A stretch of DNA of 64,000 bases. Origin: Alphaproteobacteria bacterium. GTDB lineage: Bacteria > Pseudomonadota > Alphaproteobacteria > RUG11792. The notes under the pieces were generated by a model. It searched no databases. It saw nothing but the letters and a program-made list of their open reading frames with translations, and was not told the origin of the DNA. The stretch is taken from assembly GCA_017481035.1 (NCBI GenBank), contig JAFUQI010000060.1:159-64158 (forward strand). Reading direction: 5' to 3'. Shown piece by piece: positions 12,828 to 52,066 of this stretch (positions are counted from its first letter, which is position 1; the number at the start of each line of letters is the position of its first letter). The translations under genes were made by a program, and so were the position numbers.

Positions 12828-13313
12828 TTATGGACATTTTTTATCGTTTGAAAATAAGCTAAGAACTATCAATAATACTGCGCATACTGATATGAATGAG
12901 TCTGCAACATTAAAAGCTGGCCAATGTAAATCCATATAATGAACGTCTATAAAATCTACAACTGCTCCATGTAAGAATCTATCGATTAGATTTCCTATAG
13001 CTCCTCCTATAATTCCAGCGCAAAGGATCTTCTCTGTATTATTTGTCATTCGGAAAAAAACATAAATTAGAAATATAATTAGAAGAATGGATACACCAAC
13101 TAGTATACAGCTTTCGATATGAGTTTCAGGGTTCAGTAACCCAAAGCTTGTTCCAAAATTAAATACAAGACATAAGTTTAGAAATTCAGTTATTTTTATT
13201 GAAGAACCCTTTGGCAAAAATGCTAGTATAGAGAATTTGCTTGCTTGATCGAAAATTATTGCAAAAACAGCTATAATCAAACCAAATAACTCAGCCTTTT
13301 TCTTGTTAGTCAC
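12828..13313 (-). CDS. lspA: Lipoprotein signal peptidase (signal peptidase II)
   Basis: 161 aa. Carries the motifs NFGTSFG, GGAIGNLIDR and FNVAD. Confidence 0.9.
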   Translation of the reverse strand: MTNKKKAELFGLIIAVFAIIFDQASKFSILAFLPKGSSIKITEFLNLCLVFNFGTSFGLLNPETHIESCILVGVSILLIIFLIYVFFRMTNNTEKILCAGIIGGAIGNLIDRFLHGAVVDFIDVHYMDLHWPAFNVADSFISVCAVLLIVLSLFSNDKKCP

Positions 13314-17430: not shown

Positions 17431-18546
17431 CTATCTTTTTGAGTGATTCAAATCTTTGTATTCAAGTTTTAATGATTTTGCAATAGGCTTGCATGTTATG
17501 TTGCCTTTATATATGTTTAACCCAAAACGTAATGCAGAATCTTTTTGCAAAGCATCTTTTAATCCGAGGTTTGCTATTTGTTCAATATATTGATGAGTCG
17601 CATTGTTAAGAGCAATACTGGCAGTTTGCGGATAAGCTCCAGGCATATTGGTAACACAGTAATGTAATACGCCTGAAACGACAAAGTATGGAGCATCGTG
17701 TGTTGTAGGTTTGCTAGTTTCACAGCATCCTCCTTGATCTATTGATACATCGATTATAACGCTCCCCTTTTTCATATTTCCGACAGTATTCCTTGAAATT
17801 ATTTTTGGAGTAATAGCTCCAGGAATAAGCGCACTGCATATTAGTATGTCTGTTTTTTCAATCAATTCTGCAATTTTCGATTCCGAATAAAACGTTGTTT
17901 TAACACGACCACCAAACATTTTGTCTATACTATTAAGAGTATGCTGATGTGTATCGATAACAGTAACTGAAGCACCTATTCCTTTGGCTATAAAAGCTGC
18001 ATTTTTTCCTACATTACCTGCGCCTATAATTGTAATGTTACCTGGTTCTACACCTGGAATTCCCGAAGCTAAGATACCTTCACCACCATATTTTTTTTGC
18101 AGCAAATTTGTTGCTATTAAAACAGACATTCTTCCTGCAATAGCGCTCATTGGTGCCAACAAGGGAAGTTGACCATTGTTATTTTGTACCGTTTCGTAAG
18201 CTATACAAGTCGCTCCTGAGTTAATGAGAGCTTCTGTCAACTTTTGGTTTGAAGCTAAATGCAAATATGTAAACAATATATGTTTTTCTTTTATCTTGTT
18301 GTATTCAATTGGTAATGGCTCTTTTACCTTGACTATTAATTCTGACTTATCCCAAATTTCATCAGCAACATCAAAAACTGTTGCTCCAACTTTTATATAT
18401 TCTTCATCAGGAAAACCAGCATTTAATCCAGCATTTCTTTCAACAAATACCGAATGTCCATTATTGATAAGTTTTTCAGCAAAGCTTGGGATTATCGATA
18501 CCCTAAATTCTTGATTCTTTATTTCTTTTGGAACTCCAATAATCAT
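17431..18546 (-). CDS. ald: Alanine dehydrogenase
   Basis: 371 aa. Has the N-terminus MIIGVPKEIKNQEFRV and the NAD-binding motif GAGNVG. Confidence 0.85.
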   Translation of the reverse strand: MIIGVPKEIKNQEFRVSIIPSFAEKLINNGHSVFVERNAGLNAGFPDEEYIKVGATVFDVADEIWDKSELIVKVKEPLPIEYNKIKEKHILFTYLHLASNQKLTEALINSGATCIAYETVQNNNGQLPLLAPMSAIAGRMSVLIATNLLQKKYGGEGILASGIPGVEPGNITIIGAGNVGKNAAFIAKGIGASVTVIDTHQHTLNSIDKMFGGRVKTTFYSESKIAELIEKTDILICSALIPGAITPKIISRNTVGNMKKGSVIIDVSIDQGGCCETSKPTTHDAPYFVVSGVLHYCVTNMPGAYPQTASIALNNATHQYIEQIANLGLKDALQKDSALRFGLNIYKGNITCKPIAKSLKLEYKDLNHSKR

Positions 18547-19043
18547 AAAAAACCTCCTTTTGAACTGTCAACACAGTATTGCAATCGTCCCTCAATGTTC
18601 ATAACTCTTAGAGCAATGTTTTTAGTAGCTAAAGCGCATGCATGTTCTTTAACAATTAATTCTCCATGTCCAAAAATTGGCACTAGGAATTCAGCACGTC
18701 CAAGAACTGTTAATTTTCCGTCAATCCATAACGGTTCTTCTCCCAAAACTATAAATCTAACATTTTTATCGATTGTCAGATTGAATTTTATAGAAACAGG
18801 AATTGGCAATAATGTCGTGTTAATTTCTGGTTTTAAATTTAGGTTTTGCGAAAAAGTATAATCATTACCTGAAGTATTTATTTTTTCGTCTAAAATTATA
18901 TCAGAAAAATTTCTCTGATAAGTTGATATATATTCTCCATTAATAAAATTTCTTGGAGTAGAAAATCCACATAATTCAGTTGATGTTGCTAAATCAGTAA
19001 ATAAATATGTCGCAAATACAATATAAGGAAGCTTAATTAACAT
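18543..19043 (-). CDS. Hypothetical protein with a hydrophobic N-terminus, translationally coupled to ald
   Basis: 166 aa with no motif I recognise. Overlaps the ald start by 4 nt. Confidence 0.45.
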   Translation of the reverse strand: MLIKLPYIVFATYLFTDLATSTELCGFSTPRNFINGEYISTYQRNFSDIILDEKINTSGNDYTFSQNLNLKPEINTTLLPIPVSIKFNLTIDKNVRFIVLGEEPLWIDGKLTVLGRAEFLVPIFGHGELIVKEHACALATKNIALRVMNIEGRLQYCVDSSKGGFL

Positions 19044-19189
19044 TGCTAGTATTCTCCTGTGACTATATTTATATTTTACTATGTTTTGATAGTATTTGCA
19101 AATTTTGTGTGTATTGTGAAAAATATTTTGTTAACAATTATTGTTGTTGATTTTTGAACTTTCAGATTACATTAAACTTTCCATCAATC

Positions 19190-19238
19190 TTTATGGGAGT
19201 ATTAAATTCTTTCTTTAATACAAGCATTTATGTTAAAC
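19190..19238 (+). promoter_or_regulatory. Copy 1 (weakest) of the TTTATGGGAGT-N9-hexamer-N17-TTAAC-type upstream element
   Basis: TTTATGGGAGT(19190-19200)-N9-TTTCTT-N17-TTAAAC(19233-19238). A canonical TATAAT lies at 19240-19245 and the ATG is at 19274. Confidence 0.45.
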
Positions 19239-19273: not shown

Positions 19274-22117
19274 ATGAATAAACTTTATACATATATGTTT
19301 GTGTTATCTATATCACGTATGATATATTCATGTGATGATATGTATTATATGTACGAATGTGATGATGATATACAACCTATAACTTTAATAGATAACAATA
19401 TAACTTTAAAGGATGGAGAAATAACATTAGATGATATCTCTAGACAGACAGATAGTGCAAGTACTTTAACAGAGGAAGAGAAGCAAGTTAAGTATATATT
19501 AGACTTTGACTTACCTATTGGAGAAGGAAAGTATAGAGAATATGAATATAAGATAGAAGAAATAATTAAGACTGTTACAGATGAAAACGGAAATATGTCT
19601 TATTCTAAGTATGTTGAGGCTTGGAATAATAAACATAGAGACAATAGAATAGATATATCAAAAGATTGGTTCTATGGTAATACTGTTGAGGACTTGTTGG
19701 GATTAAATATAAATAATCAAGAAGAACTAAGAAATTATTATCATAATATTCTAGTTAAACGAATTGCCAGCGATGAACGTAATCATAGAATGCTGCCAGA
19801 GTTTACTTCTTTTATAACATATGATCTTAATAATATGAAAGACGAAGAGTTTAAAGCTACGATACTTCAAGGAATACTCGTAAACATGCTTTACGGAGTA
19901 AGTCTTTCAACTTATATTGAAAAACTGAAGCATAAAATTACTAAAATGAATTATGAAGGGTTTAACGTTGCTGTAAATACACTGAAGTTAAAATTAGAAG
20001 AAGCATTTCCAAATAGCAATCCTAATGATTTAAAAAAGGAATTGTTTGGGTTTCTGCTAGATAATGACTTGATAAAGGACAACTTTGATCTTTTTGCACA
20101 AGTATACGATGCTTTCATACAATCAAACGCAACTGAACCGAAAATATATGCAGAAGAAATATCAAAAAAATTAGGGAAAGACGATAAACGGAAAGAAATT
20201 GATGGAATTATAAAAGAACTACTTAAATTAGATGCAAAGAAATTACACGAAGATGTAAACAAAAAAGAAATGTCTTTTTCTCAGTATAGAAAATATTTTT
20301 ACGTATATCCATACAATAAGAATTATAATAACAAACAAAAAATTATACAAAGAATTGACGAAGTAAAGGATGAAATATATAAAACAATTAATGATTCAGG
20401 GCTTCTTGGATTCTTAAATACTGCTTTTGTTAAGGAAGGCAATGTAGAATATGCAGATGGATTTGCGCGAGCTGAAATATTGAGTCCAACTTTTCAAGGT
20501 TACGCCACGAAGAACCAACATGGTTATATTTTAGGAAAACAAAATGTTGTTATGCTGTTCAACATAATACAACAAAAATCAGAAAACGAATATACGTACG
20601 ACATGTCGCTATGCAAAGCTATAGATTTTTCGAATTGTTTTGAAACAGATGATTACGGAGTTCCAACTGAGAACTTTTGTAATTATGTCAATTATATATG
20701 CGAACAAATAAACAAGGCTTTAAATCATGGTGTTGAAATAAAGAATGTAAATAAAGATGAAGAAATGGTTGAAAGAATATGTGTTATAAAGTCTAATAGC
20801 ACAAATGATGACATTCTTGTTACAGTAACGCAATTTTTTCCAGGAGATAGTAAGACATGTCATTTTGTATTTAACACTATCTTTAAATATCCATTTTGCA
20901 AAATTTCTGGAAACGAAGATGAACACAAAAACTTTATGGGAAAAATTTTAAAAGTAATGGGTGAACTTAAAAGAAAAAATTTTTCTAACTATGACCTGTG
21001 TCTAATAAAATCACAAGATATTTTTGAATCAAAGGAGGAATACAACAACGCTAGAGATGAATACAAAATATTTTTTGATTTTGAAAATCTTCTCAAATCG
21101 TATGAAATATGCGGTATAAATAATCTGAAAATAAATGAATTAACTTGTGATGATACAAACAAATTAATAAGCATATCTTTCGTTCAAAAAGATAATCATA
21201 GTCAAGGTAAATTTATAACAAAAAAAACAGAAGAATTGTCTATAAGTGAAGCTAATGCGTTGTTAACTAAAAATAATTATCAAGGTACAACAAACGGACT
21301 GAAAACAATAAGAATAACAAGAGATCAAGTTAAAAACGAAACAAAAATTGAAGTTGATTTTGACACAGAAAAAAAAGCTAGAACAATAAAAAAAGCTGGA
21401 ACAATTAAAGTTATAACTGATACTTGCGACACACTAACTGATGATAAACTTAAACTACTGAGATATCCAGTTTCTCTAATCCCTAGTGACTTAACGTCAT
21501 CTGAAGTACATTATAACTTTAACGGCAAAGTGATCAAAATTCAATGTCCATTTGACAAATATGAAGAATATTTGTTTAAACTTATAAAGTTATCAAATAG
21601 CGACATACAACAAGACACTTACATAGAAAAAAACGGTATATTCTTATCAGATGGAATGAATATATTGGATGACTCTGATTATGAAAGTATCAAAAAAGGT
21701 GAAATATATAGGCTTTATACTAGTACCAAAACATCACTTCATGATAAGTATAATCCATATTTTTATCAACTGGATACTAGTAACAAAGATAAAGATATAA
21801 AGGTATTAAATCCTATTAAATACGCTTATGCTAAACGCCTTTCCAAACTTTCGCCTAGTAGGATTCCAGATAAAATAAACATAATGTCGAAATCAACAGC
21901 CGAAAAACAAACAAAATTAAAATATATATTATGCACAGACGGACAGAGCTGCAAGTTTCCATTTTGGCAAATAGCAAATTTATACTATAAAGAAAATGAG
22001 TCTGGATACTTATTAATTGATAGAATAACAAAAGATTATAAAGCGAGAGGAGAGTATCGAAAGGATGTTCGGGTTTGTGCAATTAAGTCTTTACATCAAG
22101 CGACAGAGTTAGAATAG
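19274..22117 (+). CDS. Large Cys-rich orphan protein with a hydrophobic N-terminus (possible secreted or effector protein)
   Basis: 947-aa uninterrupted ORF. The N-terminus is MNKLYTYMFVLSISRMIYSC, with well over a dozen Cys, mostly in the middle and C-terminal parts. I recognise no catalytic motif. Confidence 0.6.
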   Translation: MNKLYTYMFVLSISRMIYSCDDMYYMYECDDDIQPITLIDNNITLKDGEITLDDISRQTDSASTLTEEEKQVKYILDFDLPIGEGKYREYEYKIEEIIKTVTDENGNMSYSKYVEAWNNKHRDNRIDISKDWFYGNTVEDLLGLNINNQEELRNYYHNILVKRIASDERNHRMLPEFTSFITYDLNNMKDEEFKATILQGILVNMLYGVSLSTYIEKLKHKITKMNYEGFNVAVNTLKLKLEEAFPNSNPNDLKKELFGFLLDNDLIKDNFDLFAQVYDAFIQSNATEPKIYAEEISKKLGKDDKRKEIDGIIKELLKLDAKKLHEDVNKKEMSFSQYRKYFYVYPYNKNYNNKQKIIQRIDEVKDEIYKTINDSGLLGFLNTAFVKEGNVEYADGFARAEILSPTFQGYATKNQHGYILGKQNVVMLFNIIQQKSENEYTYDMSLCKAIDFSNCFETDDYGVPTENFCNYVNYICEQINKALNHGVEIKNVNKDEEMVERICVIKSNSTNDDILVTVTQFFPGDSKTCHFVFNTIFKYPFCKISGNEDEHKNFMGKILKVMGELKRKNFSNYDLCLIKSQDIFESKEEYNNARDEYKIFFDFENLLKSYEICGINNLKINELTCDDTNKLISISFVQKDNHSQGKFITKKTEELSISEANALLTKNNYQGTTNGLKTIRITRDQVKNETKIEVDFDTEKKARTIKKAGTIKVITDTCDTLTDDKLKLLRYPVSLIPSDLTSSEVHYNFNGKVIKIQCPFDKYEEYLFKLIKLSNSDIQQDTYIEKNGIFLSDGMNILDDSDYESIKKGEIYRLYTSTKTSLHDKYNPYFYQLDTSNKDKDIKVLNPIKYAYAKRLSKLSPSRIPDKINIMSKSTAEKQTKLKYILCTDGQSCKFPFWQIANLYYKENESGYLLIDRITKDYKARGEYRKDVRVCAIKSLHQATELE

Positions 22118-22150
22118 CTATTATGGCATTTGTAACAGAATAAACCGAAA

Positions 22151-22258
22151 CAAATAGAATCATTATAGTTGTGCTAATAATATATAGTTATTGAGCATAA
22201 GCCGGCTGCGGAAAATGCGCGCGGCGCAGCCTGCTTGAATGTTCATCTTATACTAACA
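22151..22258 (+). repeat. Intergenic element of about 105 bp, copy 1 (tagaatcattatagtt...GC hairpin...tatactaa)
   Basis: Aligns by eye in the same orientation with 38225-38328. The core is ataAGCCGGCTGCggaaaatgcgcgcgGCGCAGCCTGCTTgaa. Confidence 0.75.
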
Positions 22259-22428
22259 ATCATAAAATGTTAAGTTTATAAAAGGTTTTATAATATAATA
22301 ATATACTGTGTGGTACTGTTTATCTGTTGTTATATTTGTTTGTTTTAATCGCGACAGCGATTGATTAATTTTTTGCTAAAACTTATTGGTTGTTAGAATA
22401 ACTGTTAATGAATGCATTGTAAATATCG

Positions 22429-22466: not shown

Positions 22467-22543
22467 CGGGAAGTAGCGCAGCCTGGTAGCGCACTTGCTT
22501 CGGGAGCAAGGGGTCGGCAGTTCAAATCTGCTCTTCCCGACCA
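22467..22543 (+). tRNA. tRNA-Pro (anticodon CGG), CCA encoded
   Basis: CGGGAAG acceptor stem pairs with CTTCCCG. The anticodon stem-loop is CTTGC-TTCGGGA-GCAAG, the T-arm is GGCAGTTCAAATCTGCT, and the 3' end is ACCA. Confidence 0.9.
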
Positions 22544-24551: not shown

Positions 24552-25777
24552 AATTTATAAAAAAGTTTAGAAGAAATAAACTTTTTAAATTGCAGGATAG
24601 CACTTTAGAACGTGTGCGAGAACGCGCGAAAAAGAGACATATACGGGTTGCATTTCTAAGTAGCGAAAATGCAAAATGGCAATATCAATCACTTTATGAA
24701 GATATGCTAAAAAATGATAGGTTTGATCCGTTTGTTTTAATAACAGTAAGAAAGTCATTAACAAAAACTAAGTATAGTTTTTTGAATTATAAAAAGATAA
24801 CTCAAGATAACTTTGATTCATTTAAACTTCAAAATATGAAAGTGTATTATGCTCATGATATTGCGCGTAATGAACCAATAGATATAGCTGAATTTGCTCC
24901 AGATATTGTCTTCTATGAACAACCATGGGATATATTTGAAATTCATGACATTGAACACGTTTCAAAATTCGCAGTTCCAATGTTTGTTAGTTATGGTTCA
25001 TCAATAGATAATGGAACTTACGAATCAACGCATCCTTTCTTTCAGGAAGTTTATAGATATTTTATGGATAACGATGTCGCTAAGACGAGACTCATAGATG
25101 GTGGAGCTGACAAAGCGAGAATAATTACTACAGGTAGCTTATCTCTTGACGCGTATAGAAAGCAAGTTGACATTTCAAAAATAAATTGGACATCGAAAGG
25201 TAAACCAAGAATTATCTGGTGTCCACATCACTCATTTTATGAAGGATCTGCTTTAAATTTTGGTACTTTTGATTGGAACTATCGTTTCATGCTTGAATAC
25301 GCAAAAACTCATAATGATATTGAATTTATATTAAAACCTCATCCTGAACTAAAAAGACAAATAGTTAGACATAACTTAATGAACATAAAAGAGGTAGAAG
25401 ATTACTTTAATTTATGGTCTTCTTTAAAAAATGCCAAAGTAATAGAATCTGGAAATTATATAGATATGTTTAGAACTTCTGATTTGTTAATAACTGATTG
25501 CAATTCGTTTGTTTTAGAGTATTTTCCAACTAAGAAGCCAGTTATACAGTTAATTAATAAAAATTCTGTTGGACACAACGAGTTTGGGCAAATGATAACG
25601 AATACATATTATAAAGCGTATACAGTTGAAGATATAGAAAGTTTGTTCAATACTCTTATATATCAAAAACAGGACAACAAAAAGTTTGATAGATTAAAAG
25701 TTCTTGAATCATTAAAACTTGATTATAATACATCAGGTAAAATTATTAATCATATTCTTAACCTTGTTATACAGTAG
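24545..25777 (+). CDS. CDP-glycerol glycerophosphotransferase (TagB/TagF)-family protein
   Basis: 410 aa. The C-terminal half carries family-like motifs RIIWCPHHSF, FILKPHPELK and SDLLITDCNSFVLEYFPTKKPVIQL. Overlaps the tsaD stop. Confidence 0.55.
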   Translation: MLKFIKKFRRNKLFKLQDSTLERVRERAKKRHIRVAFLSSENAKWQYQSLYEDMLKNDRFDPFVLITVRKSLTKTKYSFLNYKKITQDNFDSFKLQNMKVYYAHDIARNEPIDIAEFAPDIVFYEQPWDIFEIHDIEHVSKFAVPMFVSYGSSIDNGTYESTHPFFQEVYRYFMDNDVAKTRLIDGGADKARIITTGSLSLDAYRKQVDISKINWTSKGKPRIIWCPHHSFYEGSALNFGTFDWNYRFMLEYAKTHNDIEFILKPHPELKRQIVRHNLMNIKEVEDYFNLWSSLKNAKVIESGNYIDMFRTSDLLITDCNSFVLEYFPTKKPVIQLINKNSVGHNEFGQMITNTYYKAYTVEDIESLFNTLIYQKQDNKKFDRLKVLESLKLDYNTSGKIINHILNLVIQ

Positions 25778-38452: not shown

Positions 38453-38995
38453 ATGTCACAAAAAGAACGATTTATATGTTACGATATTATTGTTGGTATA
38501 GCTGTAATAGGATATCTCGAGATATTACAAATTTATTAGATATCAATACGCAAGATCATATTAATAAATGTTTTCTAAAACAACAGGGCGATGTTGATAA
38601 AGTTATTAAATCATTAGTCGCATCAGGTATTAATATGTCATCTATAACGTATTCTAAGAGTCTGGGAGACTGGAGTAAAGGTAAGACCATCGATTCAACA
38701 ATAGTTGTTAGAACAAAGAACCTTAAGTTCTTAGATACACTTGATTTGCCAATTAGTAATGCAAGTGTTTCTAGATTTGATTATGATTATTCTGATTCTG
38801 AAAAACTAATAGAATCATTAGAAGAAAGAGCAACTGATGATGCACAGCATATCTAAATTAGCATTAGAAAAGAATGTCATTATCGATTACATAAAAGATT
38901 ATCATATCTATCAATTTCAAAGCTCATTAAAAAACTTACAAGACGGTAACATAAAATATACAGTTAATGTATATATGCGCAAACATATTAGGTAA
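38453..38995 (+). pseudogene. Degraded SIMPL/DUF541-like periplasmic protein gene spread over three reading frames
   Basis: A TM-anchor peptide (MSQKERFICYDIIVGIAVIGYLEILQIY*, 38453-38539) lies in one frame. The 126-aa ORF lies in a second frame and ends ...EERATDDAQHI*. A third frame continues SKLALEKNVIIDYIKDY...GNIKYTVNVYMRKHIR* to 38995. Confidence 0.45.
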
Positions 38996-39009
38996 CATTT
39001 TCATAAACT

Positions 39010-39058
39010 TTTATGGGAGTTTTTAATTTTTGACAACATTTAAGTATGTAGGTTAACA
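39010..39058 (+). promoter_or_regulatory. Copy 2 of the TTTATGGGAGT-N9-TTGACA-N17-TTAACA upstream element (before tkt)
   Basis: The box is at 39010-39020, TTGACA at 39030-39035 and TTAACA at 39053-39058. The ATG at 39094 is 35 nt further on. Confidence 0.6.
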
Positions 39059-40989: not shown

Positions 40990-41065
40990 TATCAGCGTTT
41001 ATCACGATTATCTATGAGATTGCATTTACCACGAAAATATAATAGTTGACACAGATACATAAACA

Positions 41066-41114
41066 TTTATGGGAGTTTTTAGAGTTTGACTTATATCTTT
41101 ATACTAAGCTAACC
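41066..41114 (+). promoter_or_regulatory. Copy 3 of the upstream element (before the OMP gene)
   Basis: TTTATGGGAGT(41066-41076)-N9-TTGACT(41086-41091)-N17-CTAACC(41109-41114). The ATG is at 41152. Confidence 0.55.
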
Positions 41115-51521: not shown

Positions 51522-51570
51522 TGTTAACGTAGGTTAATTTTTCGTGTCAAAAAATAAAAACTCCCATAAA
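51522..51570 (-). promoter_or_regulatory. Copy 4 of the TTTATGGGAGT-N9-TTGACA-N17-TTAACA upstream element (before the GTA g6-like gene)
   Basis: On the minus strand the box is at 51570-51560, TTGACA at 51550-51545 and TTAACA at 51527-51522. The start codon is at 51460. Confidence 0.6.
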
Positions 51571-52066
51571 AATTTATGTTTTTATAAATCTTACACGTCA
51601 GAAAATGCTTTGTTTTCAATAGCTGTTAATATCTCTGTGACCAAATATATTATGCTTGGGTGCTACTATAATAGTATCGCACAACCGACATAAGTCGAAT
51701 GCAGGTATAAAGAAGATTATTAAAAGAAATGGATGTTTTCTGTGGTACTGCAATCATTTTTAGTATTATTTGCCGTTGTTTTGCTAGTGACGCATAAGTT
51801 CATTTTTTATTAATTTGATTGTTAATTCATGAACTAGCTGCCTAATATCAGCTCGACAAAAAACATATAACTTTATGTAAAAATATTATTTAATAGGTAT
51901 CAAGAGCAATATTATTTTGCGACGTATAGCTCAATTTCAGCAATCTGCTTATCGTAATGCGATTGCTATCATACAAAATACTTGTATACAAGCTTCATTG
52001 ATATAATTGAACAGAAATAAATATAATTATTAATGATTTTTGTAAGTGTTTTTTTTATTCGTTTTT

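Follow-up and report, generated by a model that had tools for sequence, protein, structure and literature searches.

A large lineage-specific gene of an uncultured alphaproteobacterium belongs to a small divergent family and shares its leader motif with otherwise unrelated proteins

Uncultured gut symbionts with small genomes are known almost solely by their housekeeping genes, and the proteins through which they contact a host or their neighbors remain unannotated. The window considered here, i.e., the whole stretch of 64,000 nucleotides (nt) that was analyzed, belongs to contig JAFUQI010000060.1 (C37 in our numbering) of an alphaproteobacterial genome of 0.89 Mb, which is 96% complete in 83 contigs. 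Its plus strand carries at positions 19274-22117 an open reading frame (ORF) of 947 codons, hereafter the target, for which an earlier note made from the letters alone had found no placeable motif and had proposed a lineage-specific secreted or host-interaction protein. The target proved to have paralogs in its own genome and to share a short N-terminal module, the leader, with eight further proteins. The locus comprises the following features, given in positions of the window:

19274-22117, plus strand: ORF of 947 codons, an uninterrupted frame from ATG to TAG, intact in assembly L125 and in the covered parts of assemblies L126 and L127
19179-19705, plus strand: 5' block shared with two decayed remnants on contigs C22 and C60, including the upstream region, the leader and ~143 codons, at ~95-100% DNA identity
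19274-19330, plus strand: signal-peptide-like leader, residues 1-19, with Lys3 in the n-region and a hydrophobic core broken by Arg15, ending in I-Y-S before Cys20; the four family members align from Met1
19331-19369, plus strand: putative post-cleavage motif C20-DD-M-Y-Y-M-Y-E-C29-DDD, an acidic and aromatic two-cysteine module present in 12 ORFs
20276-20713, plus strand: best-conserved core of the family, residues 335-480, from the conservation profile of the paralog alignment
20612-21148, plus strand: local cluster of 10 cysteines, residues 447-625, copy-specific, none of them conserved in the paralogs
21161-21433, plus strand: largely copy-specific insertion, residues ~630-720, with few or no aligned paralog residues
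21506-21973, plus strand: conserved C-terminal region, residues 745-900, holding NILDDSDYESI and HDKYNPYFYQLD, predicted to be strand-rich (low-confidence secondary structure)

The target ORF is a real gene, since so long a frame is hardly expected by chance and the locus recurs intact in independent assemblies. Stops make up ~8% of random codons at the local GC content of ~29%, so that 947 stop-free codons would occur by chance with a probability of ~1e-35, and three metagenome assemblies made independently carry the locus unbroken at 99.9% identity. Four single-nucleotide polymorphisms (SNPs) separate these assemblies, all within the target ORF, and three of them are non-synonymous. No assembly that covers the locus shows the ORF interrupted. 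The predicted mature protein has a mass of ~108 kDa and an isoelectric point of ~5.5. Its precursor begins with the hydrophobic stretch announced in that note (MNKLYTYMFVLSISRMIYSC), and the short tandem reported there was found again as the peptide KKARTIKKAGTIK (residues 700-712), encoded by an 18-nt unit present 2.2 times at positions 21370-21409. This tandem lies within the insertion of residues 630-720, which is largely private to the target because it aligns poorly and because no paralog has an equivalent of residues 691-720. Internal repeats were also sought in the target protein, and none was found.

Homologs of the target were searched extensively. Searches of Pfam, NCBIfam and PHROGs with the target and all four members of its family returned nothing above the cut-offs, the best sub-threshold scores, for one member each, being BURP (E 0.019; 15 bits vs. 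a cut-off of 27) and DUF2200 (E 0.13). PDB sequences, queried both with the protein itself and with the profile of the family, produced only Serpin48 (E 0.082). An exhaustive phmmer search of 1.8 billion cluster representatives recovered as true matches only fragments of the target's own family, which belong either to the target genome or to relatives (~89-90% DNA identity) known from tiny metagenome contigs; a protein of 4,429 amino acids (aa) aligned at 21% identity over ten stretches was taken as compositional. Word-index searches of 5.8 billion clustered proteins, with the protein and the profile, retrieved the target gene itself only, and no relative emerged from the genomic, metagenomic and viral contigs that were scanned. 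In the GTDB order of the genome (41 species genomes in 23 genera), neither the target protein nor the family profile matched any of the other 40 genomes. By comparison of TsaD, the nearest named relative is a metagenome-assembled genome of the Holosporales (68% identity), followed by assorted Alphaproteobacteria. Database records named in the form XIEF21-1 suggest that ruminant gut metagenomes may be the origin. The proposal of a lineage-specific protein is thus strongly supported, there being no homolog in any database searched or in the rest of the order, and the absence of a placeable motif or family was borne out by Pfam, NCBIfam and the PDB sequences. A match to a housekeeping family, the other outcome considered in the earlier note, did not appear in the profile searches. 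The word orphan, on the contrary, holds only outside the target's own genome, where it is not single.

This genome indeed encodes three paralogs. Two are intact, namely C62:8362-11118 (919 aa) and C83:38622-41114 (C83b, 831 aa), and one, C83a (C83:34157-36755), is split at an A7 tract into frames of 618 and 302 aa. All three are collinear with the target at an identity of only 23-28%, and two decayed remnants are found on other contigs (C60:20628-21524 and C22:3300-3945). The target is therefore one member of a small, fast-diverging family of four genes and two remnants. Conservation is highest in the first 33 residues and at residues 185-240, 335-480, and 745-900. The core presents the motifs PYNKN, N-[DE]-S-G-[FL]-L-x-[FY]-[LI]-N-T, and G-x-x-N, which read in the target PYNKN (residues 346-350), NDSGLLGFLNT (373-383), and GKQN (421-424). 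The split of C83a, at C83:35940-35955 (sequence ACAAAAAAACAAC), may reflect a mistake of assembly, a recent loss of the gene, or slippage at the tract.

The state of some of these copies invites the suspicion that the target is itself a functionless relic, i.e., a selfish or recently acquired gene in the course of being lost, as decay is seen elsewhere in the family (two remnants and one split copy), no function can be assigned, and the promoter box upstream of the target is degenerate. We regard this as very improbable, given an open frame of 2.8 kb whose chance occurrence was estimated above, its intactness in all assemblies covering the locus, and three paralogs that are full-length and collinear at ~25% identity, a situation requiring long purifying selection.

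The remnants share with the target a 5' block of ~500 nt that extends from 35-95 nt before the start codon (~35 nt in the C60 copy) to about codon 143. Both stop matching at one common sharp boundary, beyond which the C60 remnant shows no more than a remote relationship with the target. Both present ATA in place of the start codon as well as deletions in the leader, and the synonymous divergence (dS) over the block is 0.04-0.11. Because of this near-identical block, its sharp common boundary and the decay of the remnants, the family evolves through duplication, recombination of 5' segments and decay. Two database fragments, P0003 and P0004, correspond to the C60 and C22 remnants, respectively. 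An alternative genetic code was considered for their 'MWWW' starts and was rejected: these are code-4 gene calls on frameshifted remnants, in which 'MWWWY' is ATG TGA TGA TGA, a shifted frame of the CDDD codons, and not recoding.

A block of ~95-100% identity with a common boundary and only remotely related sequence downstream is also what a contingency or antigen-variation surface family could leave, the truncated C22 and C60 copies being donors or products of segmental recombination with an expressed gene and homopolymer tracts switching copies on and off. The A7 tract at which C83a is split, the position of all four inter-assembly SNPs within the ORF, with three of them non-synonymous, and the variant fragments carried by the relatives at ~89-90% DNA identity would agree with such a family. 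However, the remnants are only two and look like ordinary pseudogenes, with their ATA start, deletions and stops; no silent-cassette array was found and both partial copies include the upstream region; and the three assemblies present one allele at 99.9% identity, with no switching visible, and the SNPs are too few for a test. Altogether, antigenic variation seems quite improbable at this locus.

In the four family members, the leader opens with a short hydrophobic segment ending in [YH]-S-C, after which comes D-[DE]-x-x-x-x-Y-[DE]-C-[DE]-[DE]. All 2,975 ORFs of at least 60 aa were searched with a regular expression and then with a hidden Markov model (HMM), which added two members, and twelve ORFs were obtained that share a module in which a signal peptide and a lipobox-like [YF][SA]C precede DD-x-Y-x-x-Y-x-C-DD. 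The twelve score 21.5-61.6 bits, the next ORF reaching 6.9 bits, and in a leave-one-out analysis every member ranked within the top 13 ORFs. One large ORF that could not be placed thus gave way to a defined set of twelve proteins with what would be a common N-terminal address tag:

Four family members: the target, C62, C83a and C83b
C9:13214-14341: 376 aa
C13:7266-8069: 268 aa, second cysteine replaced and first kept
C48:7920-8597: 226 aa
C49:1231-2583: 451 aa
C60:23965-25935: 657 aa
C67:1945-3135: 397 aa
C80:9503-10444, minus strand: 314 aa, calcineurin-like metallophosphatase (Pfam, 1.5e-10)
C83:41231-42682: 484 aa, directly downstream of C83b

The first cysteine occupies position 17-22 in 12/12 leaders; the residue before it is S, A, or G in 11 of them and another cysteine in one. 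The second, kept in 11/12, follows 6-9 residues later (mostly 8). Between +2 and +12, the leader set contains 4-7 acidic residues, vs. 0-4 in other ORFs matching the lipobox pattern. The conserved Cys, Asp, and Tyr are encoded by both of their synonymous codons, which indicates that the leader is constrained at the peptide level and does not derive from a recent copy of DNA. Once the leader is removed, blastp found no match between the bodies and hhalign gave probabilities <1%. No upstream DNA motif is common to the leader genes beyond a -10-like TATAAT. The metallophosphatase has an ortholog in the sister assembly GCA_054293145.1 (L124:10001-10945; assembly at 93-97% DNA identity), which is 89% identical and keeps the leader with one conservative change. 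The leader-bearing metallophosphatase is absent from the remaining 40 genomes of this order, in which the leader profile found nothing convincing either (best 17 bits). Other exported proteins of the genome present ordinary signal peptides without the cysteine motif, such as MFRLFFCFILFGTINAATIT in an exported beta-helix family that has no sequence relation to the target.

Two further ORFs were noticed during the examination of this set. A 766-aa ORF (C23:1109-3406, minus strand) begins with MKKLLYIFPMFSITTAMSSSYSDSYSYYDDGCDDST, which is leader-like with the first cysteine lost and scores 5.7 bits with the leader HMM. For C83:41231-42682, motifs spotted by eye (NRCLFESV ... GSHYTLL) had suggested an OTU protease, a candidate dropped for lack of support in Pfam, NCBIfam, and the PDB sequences.

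The geometry of the leader is that of lipoproteins processed by Lgt and LspA (lipobox of the PROSITE PS51257 type), with a short N-terminal signal, a small residue and an invariant cysteine at 17-22; in the target, Ser19-Cys20 provides the small residue followed by cysteine at a lipoprotein-type position. Both enzymes are encoded in the genome: Lgt (PF01790, 209.3 bits) and LspA, i.e., signal peptidase II, the gene of the latter being located in the window itself at 12852-13274 on the minus strand (PF01252, 119.6 bits; G000:C37:13010-13432). Because this geometry coincides with the presence of Lgt and LspA, we read the target as Sec-exported, lipid-modified and cleaved by LspA. The secretion proposed by the earlier note may be retained in part, as all paralogs and eight further proteins have a hydrophobic N-terminus followed by cysteine, although the geometry would favor a lipid-anchored envelope protein over a freely secreted one. 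The target gene thus probably codes for an envelope protein.

According to the proposed route, the Sec system would export the target by means of its N-terminal signal peptide, and Lgt and LspA would then process it at Cys20, leaving a lipid-anchored mature protein of ~108 kDa in which the acidic and aromatic stretch up to Cys29 may act as an N-terminal tether. The C-DD-x-Y-x-x-Y-x-C-DD module would most likely be a common tag by which the leader proteins are sorted, retained or tethered; a shared address or retention function is the simplest possibility because twelve proteins with unrelated bodies have in common a stretch constrained at the peptide level. The body would be a structural or binding protein of the cell surface or periplasm. 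Such a role seems likelier than that of an enzyme because the four family members lack any invariant His, Glu, Arg, or internal Cys, which speaks weakly against a conserved catalytic site. An ORF taken to be BamB from its position next to der has a putative mature form beginning with C-D-K-K, which suggests that in this organism an Asp at +2 does not cause retention at the inner membrane. In sum, we give a probability of about 0.5 to the reading that the target is a real, lineage-restricted, Sec-exported and probably lipid-anchored envelope protein, with the leader motif as a lineage-specific sorting tag and a body that is probably non-enzymatic. What we infer is the export, the lipidation, the sorting role of the motif, a placement at the surface and any part in contact with a host.

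Several observations weigh against this reading. The PROSITE-type lipobox pattern, which admits no D, E, R, or K among the six residues ahead of the lipobox, is passed by C62, C83a and two other leader proteins and failed by the target, which has Arg15 at -5. The best hydropathy of the target over 10 residues is 1.75, the second weakest of the twelve (range 1.66-3.08). The residue at -2 is aromatic in the leader set (Y, F, H), an atypical choice for a lipobox, where A, S, T, V, or I would stand, and a conserved second cysteine would be without obvious role if Cys20 is lipidated. Structure prediction did not help either, as AlphaFold2 reached a mean confidence (pLDDT) of 36.9 for the full-length target (4 sequences) and of 42.2 for residues 325-546 (5 sequences), and beyond the leader the target matches no known lipoprotein family. 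Finally, start calls differ: the database gene call P0002 (932 aa) uses Met16, a start that would strip the target of its signal peptide, whereas the call in another assembly uses Met1 (947 aa).

A start at Met16 would make the target a cytoplasmic protein of 932 aa, the upstream hydrophobic stretch being left untranslated. Apart from the public gene call, Arg15, which weakens the hydrophobic region, could be quoted in its favor, and a Shine-Dalgarno-like sequence is visible before neither Met1 nor Met16. Still, in every paralog and in eight further ORFs the alignment begins at an upstream Met, with a hydrophobic stretch of matching length, and the near-identical remnants retain the leader codons up to their deletions. 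Because the leader is conserved and the paralogs are full-length and collinear, the cytoplasmic product and the relic considered above are both unlikely, and we rank the former as the least probable of the alternatives.

The main competitor of lipidation is a soluble periplasmic or secreted protein that signal peptidase I would cut after I-Y-S, with a disulfide between Cys20 and Cys29 closing an Asp- and Tyr-rich loop, itself a shared element of recognition or stability, and with no lipid anchor. The residues at -3 and -1 (I/L/T/A and S/A/G) also satisfy the rule of signal peptidase I, the spacing of the second cysteine in 11/12 leaders suits a disulfide loop, and the genome encodes DsbB (67.6 bits) along with a weak DsbA-like candidate. 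A secretin gene even makes an exit through the outer membrane conceivable, but its neighbor is a comF-like gene, and it does not belong to a type II secretion operon. Moreover, all twelve have the cysteine precisely at +1, next to a small residue and at position 17-22, which is the geometry of a lipobox, and the C13 protein retains the first cysteine without the second. A soluble, disulfide-looped protein is consequently judged unlikely, and the lipid-anchored envelope protein is preferred. Two other routes of secretion were tried and rejected. An autotransporter (type V) was discarded, as no translocator domain was found in Pfam or NCBIfam and the C-terminus (...HQATELE) does not end with an aromatic residue, and a type IV secretion effector was discarded for want of any VirB4/CagE/TrbE match (PF03135) in this 96%-complete genome.

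A parallel to the preferred lipoprotein reading exists in Bacteroidota, where the lipoprotein export signal (LES), an acidic motif directly after the +1 cysteine, is sufficient for surface delivery (Lauber et al., 2016; PMC5080379). The LES is common to many otherwise unrelated lipoproteins, with motifs such as C-X-K-(D/E)2, SDDDD, and SDDFE (PMC5080379). Similarly, the leader motif reads C-D-D followed by more acidic residues and is common to unrelated proteins. On the contrary, the target organism is alphaproteobacterial by TsaD and not a member of the Bacteroidota, D-D occupies +2/+3, where no Lys or other polar residue stands and before which K, Q, and S are lacking. The leader motif is also longer, with a conserved Tyr or Phe and a second cysteine, and limited to one species-level lineage. 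The likeness to the LES is an analogy, and it implies neither membership nor relatedness. The leader module might nonetheless be a previously undescribed sorting signal of a reduced alphaproteobacterial gut symbiont, marking about a dozen lineage-specific proteins, among them the target's family, the metallophosphatase and several orphans, for surface display or release, a suggestion that we make tentatively and hold to be rather doubtful. If the tag were such a signal, it would provide a proteobacterial parallel to the LES, the leader set would define the host- or environment-contact proteome of the organism, and the surface proteome of the lineage could be read from sequence. If it were an ordinary lipobox, the target would be just another lineage-specific lipoprotein.

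Mycoplasma (Vlp and Vsa) and Borrelia are known for lineage-specific paralogous families of variable surface lipoproteins, with conserved leaders and divergent bodies. The target resembles them by the small host-associated genome, the conserved leader, the divergent bodies, the remnants and the signs of recombination, and differs from them in that its leader is conserved as a peptide and not as a DNA cassette and that the bodies of the twelve are unrelated. The finding would be a variant of a familiar theme, that of exported, lipoprotein-like families which are peculiar to one lineage of host-associated bacteria with small genomes, the new part being the leader set of twelve members.

The cysteine content and fold proposed for the body by the earlier note were also considered. 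The Cys-dense region exists as the local cluster of residues 447-625, but the target as a whole holds 17 cysteines in 947 residues (1.8%), and the cluster is not conserved. For ORFs of at least 250 aa, the median of the genome is 1.39% and the 75th percentile 1.99%. In the paralog alignment, only C20 and C29 are invariant cysteines of the family. A Cys-rich or disulfide-rich domain protein was therefore rejected, cysteine being not raised and following no conserved pattern beyond these two. The helical first third was seen only in low-confidence AlphaFold secondary structure.

The surroundings of the target comprise the following features in the window:

19175-19214, plus strand: degenerate copy of a genome-wide upstream box (repeat family D4), 70% identical to the reference copy, with the core TTTATGGGAGT kept
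22128-22296, no strand assigned: dispersed non-coding repeat modules D2, D10 and I2 downstream of the target stop, with a GC-rich hairpin at ~22202-22235
22467-22543, plus strand: gene of a transfer RNA (tRNA), tRNA-Pro(cgg), 350 nt downstream of the target ORF

The target lies at a strand switch, divergent from a 166-aa ORF and ald on the minus strand, and is followed by repeat modules (22128-22178 and 22196-22296) and then by tRNA-Pro(cgg), all as the earlier note had described. Its placement behind a conserved upstream box needs to be qualified: the 11-nt core is present, but the copy is only a degenerate one, with diverged flanks and without the TTGACA of canonical copies, and no good sigma-70-like site was scored upstream of the target ATG. 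The canonical box has ~40 intergenic copies across the genome (consensus cATAAACnTTTATGGGAGTTTTTAgnnTTTGACa). It includes a small palindrome, CATAAA/TTTATG, directly upstream of the -35-like TTGACA, and further copies are found in the window at 38995-39034, 41051-41090, and 51545-51578 (the last on the minus strand). A copy on contig C83 (38542, minus strand) points at tRNA-Val and not at the adjoining paralog. A replication origin at the strand switch was rejected, as there is no cluster of DnaA boxes and the GC skew follows gene orientation.

Four of 14 family or leader loci (C37, C83b, C9, and the C60 remnant) are located <400 nt from a tRNA gene (Pro, Val, Trp, and Lys-Glu, respectively), compared to 6.9% of long ORFs (binomial p ~0.013, uncorrected), a weak hint that these loci sit in plastic regions.

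The 166-aa ORF (18543-19043, minus strand) has a hydrophobic N-terminus and is without match in Pfam or NCBIfam; it is probably co-transcribed with ald because it overlaps the ald start by 4 nt. Elsewhere in the genome, ORF C11:13112-14272, which runs off the end of its contig, contains at least 6 tandem copies of AARKAKLEQQRKAE. Downstream of the target in the window, at ~24967-24973, assembly ERZ28654267 (L126:4805-6030) carries a 7-nt deletion (TTCGCAG) that breaks a 410-aa glycerophosphotransferase/epimerase-like gene into frames of 151 and 265 aa; in three other assemblies the sequence of the window is found unchanged at this site.

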